Assembly: GCA_045837725.1 (NCBI GenBank)
Contig: JBEWZL010000056.1
Location: forward strand, 248,001 to 312,000
Length of the DNA stretch: 64,000 bases
Source of the DNA: Vermamoeba vermiformis
Taxonomy: Eukaryota
Direction: 5' to 3'
Shown here: in pieces, positions 22,101 to 47,018 of the stretch
Numbering within the stretch: position 1 is the first letter of the stretch
Layout of the letters: every line of letters begins with the position of its first letter
Made by a program: the position numbers and the translations under genes
Notes under the pieces: model-generated
What the model was told of the DNA's origin: nothing
What the model saw: only the letters and a program-made list of their open reading frames with translations
The model's database searches: none

Positions 22101-25100
22101 GGACGAGTTCATCGAGTTTGCTGCGAACAAGTGGCCTGGCTTGGAAAAGCTAGATATCTCAGGCATTCTCAATATCACTGATCGGGGCTTGGCGGCGGTG
22201 TCTAAATGTACTGACTTGAAGTATCTCAACTTAGATCGGATGGGCATGATTAGCAACGAAGGTATGTATCAAGTCACAATGGCTGGACACTTTGCCCTGT
22301 TTGTGACATCTTCGCAGGTTTGATAAAGCTGTCAAAGGCATGCAGCAAGATTGAAGAGCTGTCAATATGTCAGTGCAGTCAAATCACCGAGGCGTGTTTG
22401 ATACAGGTCACGGATAATTTGCCTCATTTGCAGCACTTCCATTGCATCATGTTCCACGAGCTTCAGCCCAAGTTGTTCACGAGTGAGGGGCTAATTCAGC
22501 TTGTGCGACCTGGCACCAAGACGCTACGTGTCTCAGTGCATCGTCTGACCAATGACAGCGCCGCACAACTCATCCAGAAGATAAATCAAACTGGCGCAAA
22601 GATAGAGAACATCGCGTTTTACAGAGAGAGCGATATGATCGCCGATCGCGATGCTGACACGCGCGGAGAATTAATATCTGAAGAGGGATTTATTCCGCTG
22701 TTCAATGTGCTGCCCCACTTGAAGTCAATCGAGATAAGCAACTTGAACATATCTGACGACGCACTACGGTTCATGCTGGCACACTGCACCAATCTGGAGA
22801 AAATTGTACTGGCCAGTCTAATATGCTCAGACCTGTCTAGCGAGTGGTTAGACGCGATCACCCCGAACAACAGCAAGTTGCAGCACTTGGAGCTCAGGTC
22901 CACAGCCAATGAGACCTCGCGTGTACCACTAATCAAGCAGCTGGCGACGTCTTGTCCTCGCCTCGCCACTCTCAAGACAGAGTCGTTCTACTTGCCCGAC
23001 GAACTGATTGCCATGTCAAACTGTTTTCCTTATTTGCAAACCTTAGACGTGTCCTTCAATGTAAGAGTTTATCGTATTCGAAGACGTTTCTAACATGTTA
23101 CAGCGGTACCTTAACATCGATGACGTGGTGATACGATTGTGCTGCGAGTCATGGCGCAATTTGAAGAAGATTCGTCTTGAGGCTTGTGACAAAGTTTTTG
23201 GCTTCGTGGACTCGCTGCTTCATTTGTCCAAGAACACACCGAAGCTGCAGTCACTGTCGCTGCGGATTTTAGACGAGATTAACCCGATGGCTCTCGCCGA
23301 CTTTTTCTACCAACCAAAGCCGAAGATCACCAAACTGGACCTGTACAAAAGCGCACCAGTCAACGACGAAGCAATGGCCAAGATATTGCCACTCGTGCCT
23401 AACTTGACGTAAGTTTTTAGGTATCATAATAAGTGCTGATTCATGTTTAAGGCATTTAAATTTGTCGTACACACGAGTCACCAACAAAACTGTTAATTTG
23501 CTCGCCCAACACGTGCCTAAGCTGCGAAAGCTTTACATGGACGGCGTTGCTGGATTGACTGACAGTGCCTTCATTGACGTCGCCAAGAAACTGAAGCACT
23601 TGCGGGTGTAAGTCCTCAACGCCTACTACTTCCTCCTCACTATTAAATATTTTACAGTATCAGTGTTGGCGAGCAGATGTCACTGAACGGAGGATGTGTC
23701 GCGTACTTTGCGTACTATTGCGACAACTTACAGAGAGTGGCAATGAGAGTCAGCGAAGATTTGTACGTTGATCCTTCAGTGTTGACTTCACACCTGACGT
23801 GCACTATTATTTGGCGAGGTACGGCACTTAATATACCAGGCTGTCGCTCTAATCGTTCATTGGTTTGATGCAGCCAAGGTCATGTTTTTGTTCTGCAAAA
23901 AGATTCAAGGGCCCATGCGACTAGAGATGCTCAAGAAATCAGCCGAGATTCTCAATCGAGTGTTGTGCACCATGCCCGAGTACTTGAATGATTACAAGGC
24001 GTTTTGGCTAGCCAACGCCCAGAAAATGGACTCAGATGCGCTGCACCAGTACATCTACATGCTCGATTACTGTCCGCAGATCATCAATCTGTTGCAGAGC
24101 TATTGGCAGTACTATCCTAACGACGAGCTGTTCACGTCAAGCTCGCTTAAATTGACGCGCAACTATCTCGTCAGCAAGACCACGTTGATCAAAGTGCTGT
24201 CGGCCCTAACTCAGCCAATCAGTCTACACATGGCAAACTGCATGTGGTTCACTCCTGGTGAAGTGGTAGAGGTACTGTCCTCGTTCCAATTCAAGTCATT
24301 GCATCTGTACAATGACACGTGGCAGTTGTTCCACCAGTCCATTGCCAAATTAAGCACTCTGTCGCAGAGTTCGCTGGTCAGTTTGGAAGTGTCAAATCAC
24401 TATGACTTGCAAGCCCTCGATGTCGCCAAGTTTACTAACCTTACCAACCTTGATGCTTCATTTTCAACGCGTGACTCGAGTAAGTCAAGTAGTTACATAG
24501 CCTGCATCGCTAACACGAATTAGTATGGGGCGCAGGTGAACTGACAGCCATACTTGCCTCTTGTAAAGGGCTCAAAAGAATCGACTTCTCGGGCAGACAT
24601 CAAGCCTCTGCCAGTGTGCTCACTGACAGCGATGCCGAGTCACTGACTTTCGAAAAGTTCAGAGCTGGCGTCGCCGTGTCATTAGCTGATGCTGCGAGGC
24701 TGTTGAAGAACTCGCCCAGCTTGCTAGACTTAAGGATACGGTACGATGAGTGTTATGCTAATAGTGTGCGTCTATTAACGGCTATGTAGCATTGGAGCGG
24801 ATGGCGGACTGGATCGTGTGATCATTGGCAATCTAGTGTCACTTGAACTGTTCGAGACTCATCTGACCAATGACATTTTGACATCGTTGACAACCTGTCA
24901 ACACTTGAAAGAGTTCTCTGCCGTATACTGCACTTTTGGAGCCGACAGCCATGACGCCTTCAGATCATTTTTCAGCTCACTAGTCTTCACTAAGTTAGTC
25001 ATGGTACCAAAGAACAAGCGCGAGCTAAACCAGCACGTGTTTGAATCCATCGCACAACAGTCGCAGTTGCAACACTTTGAAATTGCCTTCCATCCTTGCC

Positions 25101-26061
25101 CTCGTTGGCAAACATGGATTACGTTGATCGAAAAGAACGTTTCACTGAAAAAATTCATTATTCGCGACGGCTCAGTTATGGTACACTTCGCGCTACAAAA
25201 GATTATTCCGCTACTTCCACCTTTGGAGACATTCACTGGCATTTCATTGGATGATAATTTGCTGGCCATTCTTGCGCAGAACTCGCAGAAGACATTGAAA
25301 GTGTTGAACCTTTCAGCAAGCTCGGATCTGACAGAGTGCAAAGCTCTAGGTCTGTGCCGTAAAATGGAAGTATTGGACCTATCGTACTGCAACATTAAAG
25401 ACGAGGACTTGATGCACGTGACGACGTGTCTGAGTGGCCAGCTGCAAGAAGTCTATTTGCGGCAGTGCAAGAACATATCTTCCGCGACCATTATTGCCTT
25501 GTTGCAACACTGTCCGAGACTTCGTCGGATGAATGTGTCTGGTCAGTGCAATCATCCAAGTATTGATTACTGTTTCTAACTCTTCAAATAGAATGTGTTC
25601 AATTGACGGACTCGGTATTACCAGCACTACAAGAGTACGGCAATTGCTTGGAAGAGGTCGATTTAACTCAATGCCCGCTACTCACCGTGGATAAAATCGA
25701 TCAACTCAAGTTATTTTCAGTTGTCCAGCTGCGAGCTTCGCGCAACATTTTTGGGTACATGATCTCGGAAGAAGTGAAACAAATACACGGTACGTGACAA
25801 TAGCATAGCATTAACATTTGACTTAACGTATTTTCTTTAGTCTCGTATGACAATCTCTTCAAGGCACTGGCTCGCAAAGTCTGCACGCGCAGCTTGCTCA
25901 AAAATTACAGTGTGAGACAAGAGGCAACGTACTGCACCACGTGTCAAGCAGTGGTGTGCAAGTCGTGTCTGATCAAGTGTCACAAGGGCCACGAAGTCAA
26001 CGACGAGAACTATTTCAGCGTCACGTGTCAATGCAGTGTCAATTGTAAATGTCAAAAATAG
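19120..26061 (+). CDS. Large Clu-domain protein with helical region, extended LRRs and C-terminal UBR-like zinc finger
   Basis: Clu motifs (GIAGGDKY, DLEGHLGTDDRYYVLDFARLYPPE, LLRPELV, LHRAGINIRHLG, EMVARVIK); FBXL-type LRRs (LDISGILNITDRGL, LDLSYCNI); terminal CT..YCTTC..VCKSCLIKCHKGH..CQC. Confidence 0.85.
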
Positions 26062-37178: not shown

Positions 37179-37885
37179 ATGTTACATCAACTCACACGTC
37201 TATCTATTAAACATACTCGCTCAATTAAAAGAACTTCGTTGCTCAATCGAACAGCGACTTCGGAATTGAAGCGTAACTTTACCAAATCTGCTTCTCTCTT
37301 TGCACGAAAGGTTACGTTAACGGAAGAAAGCGGATTTCGTCAAAATATTACCGTTGGTAATTATTCAATTACATCTGATGCTTCAGTAAAAGATGGTGGC
37401 AAAGAAGAAGGTAAAATCTTTTTTAAATAAGAAAATTTGCCAGTTATTTTCAAAATCAATTAAATTAATCAATTACAAGAAAAATCGCTCCTAAAATCTG
37501 ATTTAAATATTACCAGGTGCCTCTCCTTTTGAACTCATATGCAGCGGATTGGGATCTTGGTACGTCGATAGATCTGATCAAAATTGATTTTGACCCCTAT
37601 TTACTCGTCCACAGCACTAGCATTACCGTGCGCATGTACGCCAATATGAAGAAATGGCCCCTCGAACAAGTGATCATCAACTTGACACACGACAAAGTGA
37701 CGGTGGAGAGCGAAGAGCCCAATGCCCAGCCTCGCAAGGTGGACAAATACGTCAGAATGATTCAGTTCAAGGGTCCATTGAGCAGCGAACAGCGCACGAG
37801 ACTGTTGGAGATTGCGAACAAATGTCCCGTGCACAAGAGTCTGGCGCAAGGCACGAACATTGTCGAGACTCATCTCGTGCAGTAA
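37179..37885 (+). CDS. OsmC/YhfA-family protein with putative mitochondrial presequence
   Basis: Arg/Ser/Thr-rich N-terminus; spliced GASPFELICSGLGSCTSITVRMYA and RLLEIANKCPVH. Confidence 0.88.
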
Positions 37886-38123
37886 ATCAGGTCCTCATTG
37901 ATAATAACAATAGCGCACAAATAAATATGCATCATGTACAGCTCGTAGTCATCACACTAAGCACATCAGACCACATTTCATTTTAAAATCACATCCGCTT
38001 TGATTTGTGACATGTCAAAGTTCTAGAATCTTGTTATTCAATTAGTTCACGTAACATCGGTACAAGTAGAGTACTCAACTAAAGATAATTGAAGAGCTGA
38101 TCATATCTAGCCGGAAAAGACAG

Positions 38124-39146
38124 ATGCGCTGCAATTTGTTTTGTTTAGTTTTATTTTTTGGCCTGGCTTTTTCTCAATGTAAGTTGCTAATTATTTAACA
38201 TGGAACGTGTAATGCACTGAAGTTAATTTTGCTAGCTTTCCAAGAGCACAGTCTTTGGAGTTCAGGTAGTTGTTTGTTTAATTATCATTTTACGCAATTT
38301 AGCAATATGGAACTCATTATTTAACTTGCAGAGGCAAAGAGCAATGACTCGTGCTCTGTTGGCATCTACGACGTAGCCATAAATCTGTCCAGCAGAACGC
38401 AACTCACTAGTTGCTACGTAACCGCTATGAATGTGTTTAATCTTTTCAGCGGTCAGTGGTTACGAGATTATCTCACTTACAACGACACCAAGCTGGATGC
38501 AGGTCAGCTACGCAGCATTGTCGTCCAACCAGAAGGCCCACCAGCGGCGTTTTTTATTAATATCAATTATCCTCGAGATGGAGGCGTCATGCACAGTTTT
38601 ATTATTGAAAGAAACAAGTTTGGCACTAATAACAATGACGAAATGACATACAGGGTGTGGATGTCGTGGATTGCTAGTAAGCGACATCATATTGCATGTA
38701 TTATAAGTAATCACCATTACCTCCCAGAATACACACTGGTTGACTGGATAAACAACTCGTTAACACCTTACGGTGGAGGAGCGATACTCGACACTAATGC
38801 AATGAGCAAGTACTTCGACTACCTGAAGTTAGTTCAATACTATGGTACAACCCCAGAAGACCTCGAGGCATGGAAGATGGCGTTTGGTATCTCTCCGATC
38901 GGATTTGCCAGAGCAAACCTTCCATTAACCCAAGCGCCGGTCGGAGAGAGACCCCTTTTTTTAAGTTATGGCCTCACAGCACGTCAACAATATAGTTCGA
39001 ATAATTTGTTTAATGACTGCAACGCAAACATCGATGCGACCATTAAATTGGCCCAGAACTGCGCACTTTTAGGTATTGCCCAACAGTACTGCCAAATATG
39101 TATAAACTGGTGTGAAGAATCTGCACGTCGAGTTACACATCATTAA
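38124..39146 (+). CDS. Secreted protein with putative papain-fold Cys/His core resembling Cif/CHBP deamidases
   Basis: Signal peptide MRCNLFCLVLFFGLAFSQ; spliced CYVTAMNVFNLF..MHSFIIE..YRVWMSW..YTLVDW; in-frame 51-nt intron 38677-38727. Confidence 0.6.
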
Positions 39147-39381: not shown

Positions 39382-42300
39382 CTATTCATCGTTGGCGAGT
39401 TCTTTGTCCATCAAATTGACGCGTTTCAACACTTCTTTAGCGGCCTCCAACATGCCCGCACGCTTCAATTTCAACGCGAGTTCTTTGTCCTCTTTAATCT
39501 TCTGTTGCAACAGCTCTGAATATGACTCCATAGTCAAGATCTCTTTTTGAATCTTGATGATCAAGATTTGCATCTTCATTTGCACTTGATTCAGACGCAG
39601 CTGAAGTTCTTCGGGGATTTCTTTCTTGCTGCGTTTCAACAAGACCATTTGCTGCTCAATCTTTTGCTGCTCATATTCGAGCACGGCATTGCTTTCAATG
39701 CGATCGATGCTGCAGACAAAGGGTGAGTAATGACGCGAATACTAACTTAGAACTGGTGCATTATTTTACCTGTCCCAATCAGCTGGCACATCGTTGTTTG
39801 GTGCTTCAGTGGCTGGCTGTGAGTCCGCTACAGGTACCTCTTTGACAGGTGTCTCGTTGACAGGTGTAACAGGCATAGGAGTGACAGGCTCGTCCTTGCC
39901 AGGCGTCTCATCGACAGGCGTCAATTGTCCGCTCTTTGGTGCACTCTCAGTCGATGGTGGGCCTGAGGTAAAGTCATCTTTTTCTGGCACTTCTGTTGGC
40001 TTCTCTGGCTCAACAACAAATTCGGGTACTTTTGTCACAGGCTCATCTTTGACAGGTGTCACTGGACTCGTGGACTCGACAGGTGTGACAGTCTTCGAGG
40101 ACTGTTTTACGTTGGTGTTGTTGGGCTGAGCAATAGGTGGACTAGTGATGGGGAAGTGTTTCTCAATCTTCAAGATCTGTTCGCGCGTCACTCGGATCTG
40201 CTTGGCTAACAATGGCTCGCGCAATCGTGCTTTGATCTCGAGCTTGCCAATCACGTTCTTCTTGCCTTCAACGATCTACGTCAAGTGTTAATACTACATC
40301 GCGTTGTTATTCAATGCGTGCTCACCTCTACAAACTCATGCACAGTCGACTGGTTTAACAAGTCCTGCAACTTGAGCTCTGCTTGACCAATCTTGACATC
40401 GCGCATCAAAAACGAGCGTTGATGATACACTTCAAAGGTCACTTTGCGCGACTTCAAGAAGCGAGCAAAAACGTTCTTGCGCTCAATCTTCACACGTGCC
40501 GAGAAGTTGAATTCTAGTAAATGACGTCAGAACTGTCACCGCAGTGAATATTAACACGCTTACCAGGCTCAATTGACTTGCGCACAGTGTTCGAGCGAAT
40601 CTTCTGCACTTGATTCTGCGGCCACGGGAACTCGCAGTAGATGTACATGTCAAGCGTGTCATAGCCCGAGGGCGGCAAGATGTCAAAGGCCCGCACAAGC
40701 TGGAACTCGAGCTCGTCCATGCGCACCTCAGGGTTGATGATTTCTTCGCGCCGTTCAATGGCATCAAGCTTGAAGAGTGGTGGTGGCACGTGTGGGAACT
40801 GTTTGGCCCGTGTGACTTGTTCGAGATCAGCGGTGAGATCTTTCTTTTCGCGCAGATATTTGAGTGCCTCTTGTTTGTTGCCCATGTTTTTGTATTTCTA
40901 CAATTGAGTGTCAGCGGTGGTATTTAACTAGCATGTGTTGATTAGACTTACCAGCGCGTTATTGACCGCTTTAGATATTTGCGCATTCAACAGCTGTTCA
41001 ATGGTCTCAAACACACGACGTCGTTTGTAGTCCTCGTCACTTTCACCCTCGTGTCGCGGTGGATTGTGCGCTGCGAATGGATCATCAGCCAAACCCGTTG
41101 CTTGTGAGGCCGTGAGCTCTTCATCGAGATCTCCGACACCACTGCTCAGCTCTGGACGTGCAGGGCTGGTGGCCTTGGCTTTGGGCGATTTCTCTTTGGG
41201 CACACTCACCACATTGTGTCCTGGGGACATGGTGGATGCGGCTAAATGTGCTGGGCCACGAGGGGGTGTGGCTCGTGTCACCGGCACTGAAGCTGAGAGA
41301 TTGTCAGCGGGCGTAGGTGCGGACAACTCTTTGGCACTCGGAGGGATCTTGGAGGGGTCTGTGGCAGTGTCAGCAAAGCACATCAAACACCGTCAGTGGC
41401 CCACTTACCAATGTGTTCACCGCGACTAGCACGCTGATGCATGGCCTCGAGTGTCTTGCCAACCTTCAAGTACTTGAGCGCTGCAGACTTGTTGCCTGAC
41501 TTGTTGAACTTGGCTGCAAATGACTTGTACTCGAGACTGCGCGAGTGCAACAAATCCACGAGCTGTTGATCGACTGCTTTGGGCTCGTCTTCTGGATCTA
41601 CATCGCGCATTGAGCTGTCAAGCGGTGACTCCTCGTGCGTGATTGGCAGTTTGACACGTGTCAACGGCGGTGACTGCTGCATGATGTCTTCCGGGGCCAC
41701 GTGTTTGACATTGACTGGCACACTCTGCGCAAGCACGTGACTCGTGTCGAGGTCCATCATGCTGCCCAACTGATCGAACTGAGCGTCCTCTTCATGTGCT
41801 TTGTTTGACACGCGGTGTGGTGCAGTGCTCTGAGTGACAGGTCGCGTGTCAACAGGCATGGCGAGTGACTCGTTCAAATCATCGAACATGGTTACATCAC
41901 GCACTCGCTGCGCACTCGTCTCTGATCGTTCGCTGTGTAGTCCTCGCGTGCGCTGTTCGTGCTCGTGCAACTCGTGTTCCAATCGCTTGATTTCGTGCAG
42001 CATCACTCGCGCCTCTTCCATTTGCCCAGCAGCACGTGTCTCGAGGCAGTGTTTCTTCTCCACGGCAATGCGTTGTCTCAAGTACTCTGCGCGCGAGTCC
42101 CCTGGTGCCTTGTCTGTGCACAGTTAGCGCTGCTCGAGTGTTAGAACCGAGTGCCGTACCTTGACCTGCGGAGCGGGCACTGCCATCATCAGCCTCGAGA
42201 CCAGTGAGCTGTGCGAGTAGATCAGGGTCGTTCAAATCATCTTCGTTGAACTGCATCTTGTCCACATCAATGTCTTCCAGGGCTCCTTTCAACATTTCTT

Positions 42301-45013: not shown

Positions 45014-45965
45014 TGTCAAAATAATAATTTAATTATTATCACATCGAAAATAATAAGGTGCGCCATTAAGCAGAGTTTTCGATTGAATTTTTGCGAGTTC
45101 GTTTTCTAAAAATTCGAATAATGATTATTGAGCAAGAGCGAGCTTGCTTTATTATAGTGCATCGTGTAATAATATAAGATATAATTATAGGCGAATTAAT
45201 ATCTCCAAACAGTCGTAAAGAATTTCGAAATAATTCAAGAAGCTTACTGATATTCCACACTGGCTACAGTGGGTGAATGTACCTCAGCCATATTATATTA
45301 CTTGTATAGTGCTTCAATCGATGGAAATAGATTTCAGAAATCAACAAATTGCTAGAACACTGATGGCTGACACGTGATTATTTCGTTTTTGCGTTTTTAA
45401 CCACGTGGCGCAGTTCTAAAAGAGGCATTTCAACCTTGACAGCAGACTGTTCTCCATGAGGCTAAGGACAAGGACAAGGACACCATTATCGTTCAGCAAG
45501 CAACATGGAGCCTTTTTAACGACCACTTTCGAGTCTCTTACAATTTGTTGACGATATCAATATGACATAATAATAACGACCATAATTCTAACCATGTTAT
45601 TATACATGCCAACTCCAATTAATATTGGCAACTCGATTAATTGTTATTTGAAAGCTTCCTTTGAATGCAGTCGCACTGCCTCCGTGCTTAAAAGGCGTTG
45701 CTTTCCCTGTGCGAGCCTCGGCGAAATTGTCCCTCGTTCCGTTGTCCCCTACAAAAGTCAAACTTTTTCTGTTCGCAGCATGCTGGGAAGAAAGGGACAA
45801 AAGCACAATCTCCACACACGCGCATTTTTTGTTTTACACAACACCACACAACACACTTCTCTGTTAATTATTCGGCTTGGTGGCTAACTTACACACCGTC
45901 GCTTAAATAACAGAAACCTAACAACCCATATTCTTATTACAACTCGAAGGCTAACATACACTTCA

Positions 45966-47018
45966 ATGGATTCTGCTCTTGCTGTCAAAGTCAAGTACGG
46001 TGATCAATTCCGTCGCTTCAACTTGAAGAGTAACTCGTTTGCTGAATTTTCGCAAGACATCCGCTCCATTTTCCAGCTGGATACGAATCTTCCCTTGGTC
46101 GTCAAGTACTTGGACGACGAAGGCGACGAGATTATTATGAGCTCTGATGCTGAATTAATCTGCGCGATTGACTTGCTGCCTGCTTCTGCTAGCCGCTGCT
46201 TGAAGGTCTTCGTGCAGATTCAGCAACAACCACTGCCTGGCTCGTTCCCTACCACCCCGGTGCAGCCGATGTTCTATCCCCAGCCTGTGCCTGCTCAACC
46301 CAAGATGTCTCATGACGCGTGGCGCGAAGCTGTGAAGCAGCGCAAGATGGAGAAGCTGGAAAAGAAGATCGAGAAGAAGATCGAAAAGAAGTTCGACAAG
46401 CTGGCTGACAAGCAAGAAAAGGCTGGCATGGTCCGTCCAATGATGGCTCGTTTGGTCTCGCACGTCACTGTGCCTGATGGCCAGGAGTTTGGACCGGATG
46501 TGACCTTCACCAAGACCTGGAGACTGCGCAATGACGGCACTCAGCCCTGGAGCGCCAACTTCTCTTTCTTGCGCGTGTCGCGTGGAGAGGACGCGTTGAA
46601 TGCACCTCTCTCCGTGCCACTCGGCCAAGAAGTCGCACCAGGGTGGGAAGTGGACATCACGGTCACCATGAAGACACCCACGCAGCCTGGCGCGTACGAG
46701 AACTTTTGGAGACTCACCACGCCTGAGGGCCGCAAGTTCGGTCAGAGAATCCGCTGCAAGATTGCCGTCGTCGCGTCCAGTGAAGACGACAGCTCTTCCA
46801 ACGAACAAAAGTCAGGCAAAGAGACCAAGCAGCAGTACTTCGCTGCACTGCGCGACAAGTACCAAGTGCAGCTCAATGTCTTGCACCAGATGGGCTTTGA
46901 GGGCTACGATCGCAAGTTGTTGAAGAAACTCGACAAGTTCCAAGGCAACTTGGACCTCGTGTTGAACTTCATCATCACGCGCAAGAAGAAACTCGCTGGA
47001 GTGGATCCCAAGCACTAA
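45966..47018 (+). CDS. NBR1/p62-like autophagy receptor: PB1, NBR1-FW and UBA-like; intronless
   Basis: PB1 (VKVKYGDQFRRF; VKYLDDEGDEI), FW domain (VTVPDG..FTKTWRLRNDG..W; WRL..GRKFG), C-terminal LHQMGF UBA-like. Confidence 0.88.
   Translation: MDSALAVKVKYGDQFRRFNLKSNSFAEFSQDIRSIFQLDTNLPLVVKYLDDEGDEIIMSSDAELICAIDLLPASASRCLKVFVQIQQQPLPGSFPTTPVQPMFYPQPVPAQPKMSHDAWREAVKQRKMEKLEKKIEKKIEKKFDKLADKQEKAGMVRPMMARLVSHVTVPDGQEFGPDVTFTKTWRLRNDGTQPWSANFSFLRVSRGEDALNAPLSVPLGQEVAPGWEVDITVTMKTPTQPGAYENFWRLTTPEGRKFGQRIRCKIAVVASSEDDSSSNEQKSGKETKQQYFAALRDKYQVQLNVLHQMGFEGYDRKLLKKLDKFQGNLDLVLNFIITRKKKLAGVDPKH

Follow-up and report, generated by a model that had tools for sequence, protein, structure and literature searches.

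We have analysed a 64,000-nucleotide (nt) stretch of DNA from Vermamoeba vermiformis (assembly GCA_045837725.1, contig JBEWZL010000056.1, positions 248,001 to 312,000 of the forward strand; this whole stretch is called the window below, and coordinates are counted from its first letter). At 38124-39146 (+) it holds a gene whose four exons join into an 849-nt coding sequence for a spliced protein of 282 amino acids (aa). An earlier note, made from the DNA letters alone, had described a secreted, intron-containing eukaryotic protein resembling the bacterial Cif/CHBP NEDD8 deamidases. The first part of this description is borne out by a hydrophobic leader, three introns and neighbours of a eukaryotic kind, all detailed below. 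The second part is more delicate. As far as sequence comparison goes, the resemblance to Cif is measurable but marginal, and it is too weak to name the protein a Cif enzyme.

The three introns are confirmed by three lines of evidence: the placement of insertions and deletions (indels) in an orthologous gene, the structure of an intronless homolog, and exon joints found in contigs from a close relative. The orthologous gene lies on a metagenome contig of 1476 nt (L001), and its product is identical to the window protein at 261 of 282 residues (92.6%). L001 retains every splice site, and the indels that would break the reading frame (23 nt in intron 1, 4 nt in intron 3) are found in introns only; intron 2 differs by two indels of 3 nt (6 gap columns), and the sole indel in an exon measures 6 nt. 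The homolog P0038 (293 aa), full-length and intronless on contigs of at most 1005 nt, has the look of a transcript; it is without the residues that intron 3 would encode, and its W-L-A-K-Y spans the predicted third junction exactly. Finally, contigs of run X5, from a close relative (95-99% alike), carry the joints 38178|38236, 38265|38332 and 38676|38728, the second of which is listed as 38262|38329 with 'cut +3' and is thus the same joint. At the third joint these contigs have a synonymous AAG where the window has AAA. One of them spans 38096-38178, that is, it begins 28 nt upstream of the ATG, and exon 4 is covered to 39132. Going by these contigs, whose status as RNA is a guess only, the gene may be transcribed in the close relative.

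The encoded protein is under purifying selection, as seen from the ratio of non-synonymous to synonymous divergence (dN/dS) of 0.24 between the window and L001 (dS 0.135, dN 0.032), based on 22 synonymous and 21 non-synonymous differences over 282 codons. If exon 2 is skipped and exon 1 is fused to exon 3, the reading frame ends in a TAG stop. The raw open reading frame (ORF) at 38325-39146 runs through intron 3 and gains 17 residues. The G+C content (GC) of the exons is 0.44 versus 0.27-0.37 for the introns, and with a range of 0.38-0.52 across the window the gene is typical in this respect. The parts of the gene are collected in Table 1.

Table 1. Exons, introns and candidate catalytic codons of the gene, in window coordinates.
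Feature	Position	Strand	Remarks
Exon 1	38124..38178	+	ATG and hydrophobic leader (probable signal peptide); residues 1-18 and first base of codon 19
Intron 1	38179..38235	+	57 nt, GT..AG
Exon 2	38236..38265	+	30 nt
Intron 2	38266..38331	+	66 nt, GT..AG
Exon 3	38332..38676	+	N-terminal domain with invariant Cys56 and His116; part that aligns to the Cif catalytic core
Codon of Cys56 (candidate nucleophile)	38412..38414	+	Aligned with the Cif catalytic Cys
Codon of His116	38592..38594	+	Aligned with the Cif catalytic His
Intron 3	38677..38727	+	51 nt, GT..AG; in frame and stop-free
Exon 4	38728..39146	+	C-terminal half, five conserved Cys, stop codon

To judge from its leader, sequons and cysteines, the protein is of a secreted type, with a predicted mass of about 29 kDa before cleavage of the leader. 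The leader was called from its hydrophobicity (mean Kyte-Doolittle value of 2.18 over residues 3-17). The protein has four N-x-S/T sequons, and its mature part has seven cysteines (36, 56, 241, 255, 265, 268 and 272), an odd number, so that one thiol would be left unpaired. His116 is the sole internal histidine of the mature protein. All the peptides that the earlier note had quoted are present (CYVTAMNVFNLF, LDAGQLR, AFFININ, MHSFIIE, YRVWMSW, TLVDW and AMSKYF), and the layout it gave is exact: a Cys codon at 38412, a histidine 60 residues past this cysteine and, within YRVWMSW, Met139 a further 23 residues on.

The family to which the protein belongs is, by the searches made here, small and restricted to a few microbial eukaryotes. 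An exhaustive phmmer search of 1.84 billion cluster representatives returned four proteins at E<=0.001. Two of these (P0002 and P0003) are prokaryote-style ORF calls on L001. The third (P0004) is a partial homolog of 189 aa with 42% identity and probably a retained intron of its own, found on 9 contigs, the longest of 6.5 kb. The fourth (P0005; 1516 aa, repetitive) was judged spurious by its sequence alone and left out. P0038 came from a profile search, which gave 3 hits among 571 candidates. A pattern search for related loci with the single protein gave 156 pattern matches and one relative, and a word-based homolog search with the ORF scored none of 235 candidates. The search for homologs that the earlier note had proposed was to include viruses; a scan of viral contigs with P0038 yielded 3 pattern matches and no relative. 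Nor was a bacterial relative present among the phmmer results from the 1.84 billion representatives.

Within this family, no sequence covering the site lacks Cys56 (3 of 3 in the family alignment have it, as does P0038), and His116 is invariant. The polar residues Glu121, Asn123, Asn130 and Glu132 are family-invariant too, and all seven mature cysteines align in P0038. The window protein, P0038 and P0004 each have a hydrophobic leader, with differing sequences. P0004 has some 20 extra residues, lacking in P0038, between W-D-P-Y-x-F-R-N and W-I-T-A-E-Q-L. These are probably a retained intron at a place where the window gene has none, which would mean that intron positions vary within the family.

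For the comparison with Cif, we assembled the E2348/69 locus, 32 database relatives and 10 genomic loci, from which 21, and then 27, sequences were aligned. The E2348/69 frame (L003:1195-1851) was taken from the RefSeq record NC_011601 of E. coli E2348/69; it is 218 aa long and ends in ...DDICNY, and other E. coli Cif entries (P0007, 279 aa) extend about 60 residues beyond the end of this frame. The Cif strings that the earlier note had quoted agree with the database sequences, save that E2348/69 has an A for the T in CGVTANTIMKLF; the Cif protein P0011 carries the version of the note.

Pairwise comparison gave the clearest signal. In BLASTP, the unspliced ORF matched the E2348/69 Cif with 26.9 bits over 71 columns and with Cys and His aligned, at an E-value of 2e-4 that holds for this one comparison alone. 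With the spliced protein, 23 of 27 high-scoring segment pairs (HSPs) against the 27 Cif sequences span the Cys and the His of both partners, and 17 of the 27 reach E<=0.01 when the search space is one protein; the best reaches 33.5 bits (26% identity, 175 columns, 15% gaps). The L001 ortholog behaves in the same manner (24 of 27 HSPs spanning Cys and His, 20 of 27 at E<=0.01). When all 818 ORFs of the window (stop-to-stop, at least 40 aa) were compared with Cif by BLAST, this ORF ranked first, at 30.8 bits over 139 columns versus 25.4 bits over 34 columns for the runner-up. It matched 14 of 27 Cif sequences with at least 22 bits; none of the nine ORFs that complete the top ten had more than 4 such matches. 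Our own Cif hidden Markov model (HMM; 21-27 sequences) gave the window protein 7.6-8.2 bits, and 7.8 bits with the leader removed, a score reached by none of 2000 shuffles. A comparison of profiles with hhalign, family against family, aligned Cys and His over 65 columns with a score of 25.3 (E 0.0098), which was matched by 1 of 300 column-shuffled Cif profiles, while the reversed profile scored 14.1; the reported probability is only 3-4%. In the ESM-Atlas, whose neighbours serve as leads only, the window protein lies nearest to a Cif cluster (0.80), with Gln_amidase and SpvD clusters next (0.78-0.79).

What the two families have in common is an invariant Cys and an invariant His, collinear over roughly 65-160 residues and spaced by 60 residues here versus 56 in Cif. 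Shared positions are C-x-x-x-A (an alanine at Cys+4), L-F/L, Y, a D-G before the His, H-x-aromatic (the aromatic residue thus at His+2), an acidic residue at His+5, R..F and W-M. Cys56 falls on the catalytic Cys of the Cif motif P-x-C-G-x-(T/S)-A-N in BLASTP, hmmsearch and hhalign, with only C..(T/S)A common to both. His116 aligns with the His of the Cif G-H-A-Y; the local sequence here is M/I-H-S-F.

Other results weigh against reading this resemblance as kinship. Pfam, at E<=10, gave no family for the window ORF, the exon pieces, the L001 pieces, P0038 or P0004; NCBIfam and PHROGs gave none either, and sequence and profile searches of the PDB returned chance rows only. Among these rows, one to a metallo-beta-lactamase (E 0.61) aligned on an intron-encoded stretch and one to a LIM domain had E 1.2; both were rejected as chance. 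Our own Cif HMM gave the ORF 7.1-7.7 bits, a score tied by an unrelated 54-aa ORF of the window (7.5), with a window-wide E-value of 0.09-0.14. The divergent family members fare worse: P0038 (-3.1 with its leader removed) and P0004 stand at about -3 bits, and 515 of 2000 shuffles of P0038 equal its score. None of the 27 HSPs listed for P0038 against Cif, and none of the 24 listed for P0004, spans Cys and His, and the best alignment of P0038 with Cif (E 0.010) registers another, non-conserved His. The window protein itself does not match L021 (E 0.51), which diverges most among the Cif sequences. As more family members were added, the hhalign signal weakened (E 0.01-0.016, probability 3-4%), and the C-terminal halves alone gave E 0.34. 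The His of the window protein is not preceded by a Gly, unlike that of GHAY, and ESM scores of 0.80-0.84 are attained by a third of shuffled proteins. Since Cif was proposed by a reader to whom the likeness was already apparent, the E-values of single comparisons overstate the case. A search of an E. coli chromosome with the window ORF bears on neither side: its one scored candidate lies elsewhere in the genome (11.3 bits, E 0.356), and Cif did not come up for scoring.

According to a review of Cif (PMC3202828), the Cys-His-Gln triad is strictly conserved, any single mutation in it abolishes activity, and a part in recognising the substrate is ascribed to the N-terminal tail. In our alignment all 21 Cif sequences share the glutamine (Q182, within Y-Q-S-D). 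The earlier note had placed a Met at this position by setting YRVWMSW against FLYQSD and TLVDW against FEDW. In that register Met139 does occupy the place of the Gln, and an ungapped register puts Arg136 there; no register offers a Gln, Asn or Asp. We have dropped the earlier register, since BLASTP and hhalign both prefer to set the family-invariant W-M-S on the invariant D-W-M of Cif, with R-N-K-F on R-D-A-F, although neither register is statistically secure. In hhalign and in the best BLAST alignments the F-L-Y-Q-S-D strand of Cif then falls in a gap, a further point against kinship. The window protein thus has no counterpart of the catalytic Gln by alignment. The N-terminal tail and the type III secretion signal of Cif are likewise absent: a eukaryotic-type hydrophobic leader stands instead, and only about 38 residues separate its end from Cys56. 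The Gln and the tail are two defining features of Cif, and with both missing the protein should not be filed as a member of that family. The Cif/CHBP profile of Pfam (PF16374) did not match it, and our own HMM scored it weakly. Unlike Cif, moreover, it has sequons, seven conserved cysteines and an unrelated C-terminal half besides its leader, its gene has introns and a eukaryotic genomic setting, and its divergent relatives P0038 and P0004 show no resemblance to Cif. Membership is therefore contradicted on sequence grounds. What survives of the resemblance proposed in the earlier note is that directed tests find more than nothing, with Cys and His aligned; library-wide support is lacking.

AlphaFold2 gave a mean predicted local distance difference test score (pLDDT) of 35.7 for the read-through ORF as a single sequence and of 37.7 for P0038 with 4 family rows; both models are unusable as folds. 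Foldseek, run on the low-confidence model of P0038 against the PDB, found no match at E<=0.001 (best row E 0.19). Both low-confidence models have the same order of secondary structure: a helix at the Cys, a second helix, and three strands with the His on the second. In P0038 the helix at residues 69-84 surrounds Cys72, and His133 lies in the strand at 131-143. As modelled, this order is compatible with a papain-like core.

The surroundings of the gene are of a eukaryotic kind. An NBR1-like autophagy-receptor ORF at 45888-47018 (+) has a PB1 domain (E 1.8e-11) and an N_BRCA1_IG domain (E 6.8e-27), and is a clear marker of a eukaryotic window. An OsmC-like ORF (37502-37885 (+); PF02566, E 8.6e-7, 29.7 bits, the cut-off being 27.5) lies upstream, with 238 nt between its end and the ATG. 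On the other side, one or more genes on the opposite strand (39382-42123 (-)) converge on the 3' end of the gene at a distance of about 235 nt. This region contains a coiled-coil-looking ORF and a weak Snf7-like match (41383-42123 (-)), which at 25.2 bits is under its cut-off of 27.3. Farther away, F-box/LRR-type repeats (PF24758) occur in the ORFs 22254-23093 (+) (E 9.9e-9) and 24779-25579 (+) (E 7.3e-6); the second, at 26.2 bits, is under the cut-off of 27, and the two are possibly a tandem pair. Over the whole 64 kb and both strands no Rfam family reached its gathering score, and no tRNA, snRNA or rRNA genes were present. The window holds no paralogs of the gene. In L001, positions 1-107 are a 98% complementary inverted copy of positions 877-983 (the end of exon 3, intron 3 and the start of exon 4). 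Either the assembly went wrong at this end of the contig, or part of the gene is duplicated in inverted orientation in that organism. Because this copy occupies the start of L001, synteny with the OsmC-like gene upstream is not visible there.

The earlier note had supposed that the gene was acquired horizontally. This finds no backing: there is no detectable donor lineage, and phmmer gave no bacterial relative. Recent transfer or contamination was rejected on the strength of the three introns, the native GC, the eukaryotic neighbours and the conservation of the gene structure in a relative.

The reading that we favour, tentatively and at somewhat less than an even chance, is that the gene encodes a secreted papain-like thiol hydrolase, to which the head domains of Cif are the nearest detectable family, and which uses a dyad, or another polar residue, on an amide substrate outside the cytosol. 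Its N-terminal domain (approximately residues 36-145) would be the papain-like hydrolase module, in which a nucleophilic Cys56 may stand at the start of a helix and His116 may serve as general base from a beta-strand that comes after it. The nearest detectable relative of this module would be the catalytic 'head' of the bacterial Cif deamidases. Instead of the Gln strand and the tail, the protein has its leader of eukaryotic type and, in the C-terminal half, an extension that holds five conserved cysteines. Catalysis could proceed by the Cys56-His116 dyad, or could be aided by Glu121, Asn123, Asn130 or Glu132. It would attack an amide or peptide bond in the medium or in the lumen of a phagosome or lysosome, most plausibly in material from ingested or competing microbes. 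The NEDD8 and ubiquitin of the cell itself are implausible targets, given the leader, the sequons and at least six cysteines capable of forming disulfides, and deamidation of NEDD8 by this protein is unlikely from its sequence.

A quite different account of the same data is that the protein is a secreted Cys-rich factor with no enzymatic function, involved in binding, adhesion or the matrix, in which Cys56 would be joined to Cys36 by a disulfide, His116 would be structural, and the resemblance to Cif would be a coincidence of the twilight zone. We regard this as quite possible, though we lean against it. Both Cys36 and Cys56 are conserved, 20 residues apart, in a protein of secreted type, and Cys56 could indeed be bonded to Cys36 rather than serve as a nucleophile, which would tell against a thiol hydrolase. 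The absence of a canonical third catalytic residue is in its favour, as are the lack of significance in any library-wide search, the missing Cif similarity in the divergent homologs, a signal that is poorer at the level of profiles than in pairs, a random ORF of the window that equals the HMM score, and the post hoc choice of Cif by a reader scanning many genes. It must then be accepted, however, that Cys, His and around a dozen family-invariant positions (those listed above) fall collinearly on Cif-invariant ones by accident, that the hhalign score is one that only 1 of 300 profile shuffles matches, that the ORF is a clear BLAST outlier among 818, and that two family members separately reach papain-like families in a language-model search.

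The language-model search also offers a lead to another kind of enzyme. The neighbours of P0038 in the ESM-Atlas are NlpC/P60 and CHAP clusters (0.80-0.84) and not Cif; these two, like Cif, Gln_amidase and SpvD, are papain-like families. The protein might then be a peptidoglycan or cell-wall amidase or peptidase of the NlpC/P60-CHAP type, secreted to phagosomes or to the medium for the killing or digestion of bacteria, a function for which secretory routing would be suitable. Secreted papain-like amidases of bacterial derivation have precedent in eukaryotes: ticks acquired domesticated amidase effectors (Dae) from bacteria, and Dae2 shows the adoption of such toxins by a eukaryote, according to a preprint (bioRxiv 10.1101/2020.04.10.036376). 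The likeness to these systems would be that of secreted papain-like Cys-His enzymes in general. Unlike them, the window family has no Pfam match, whether to NLPC_P60 or to CHAP at E<=10, and no detectable donor lineage. Its ESM scores are within the range of noise, and hhalign against 7 E. coli NlpC/P60 domains (PF00877) gave noise as well (score 14.1, E 0.22), aligning 16 columns elsewhere in the protein and leaving Cys and His unaligned. We consider a cell-wall enzyme of this type distinctly improbable. The NlpC/P60 profile, scoring at the level of noise, also serves as a specificity control for the hhalign signal with Cif. Gln_amidase (PF15644) and SpvD (PF05563), which rank right behind Cif when the ESM-Atlas is searched with the window protein, are a lead only: neither is matched in Pfam, and the likeness comes from that search, not from alignment. 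As for a genuine Cif/CHBP deamidase of Gln40 in NEDD8 or ubiquitin, acquired horizontally and exported as a toxin against other eukaryotes, Cif is admittedly the closest family in every directed test, with Cys and His aligned. Such an enzyme would nevertheless have to work with the essential Gln strand lacking a counterpart, or with a Met or Arg in its place, and lacking the N-terminal tail that has been linked to recognition of the substrate; it would enter the secretory pathway, away from NEDD8 and ubiquitin, with no evident delivery device, and its composition is native with an undetectable donor. We hold this to be very improbable.

How a secreted hydrolase of the kind we favour would have come to resemble Cif is a matter for speculation. 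It may be a descendant or ancient cousin of the Cif head that lost the tail and the Gln strand, was routed through the endoplasmic reticulum and became a disulfide-stabilised exported enzyme, or Cif may itself be derived from such a eukaryotic family. Either course strikes us as unlikely, if conceivable. The Cif interpretation is a reasonable lead but unproven on the sequences at hand; the gene and the observation are real.

If the relation to Cif is not real, the gene still encodes a well-supported member of a very small, uncharacterised secreted family with an invariant Cys/His pair, which would be useful for annotation but ordinary. If the relation is true, the consequences would be wider. 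In search listings and the opening lines of abstracts, no eukaryote-encoded protein resembling Cif came up, and the available excerpt of PMC3202828 describes Cif only as a bacterial type III effector. The protein from V. vermiformis would then be the first relative of the Cif fold to be encoded by a eukaryote and routed into its secretory pathway. A fold known only from an effector that bacteria inject would have a secreted branch in eukaryotes, with a new substrate, and this would bear on the origin of Cif and on how papain-like toxin domains are re-tooled through the loss of the Gln and the gain of new targeting.

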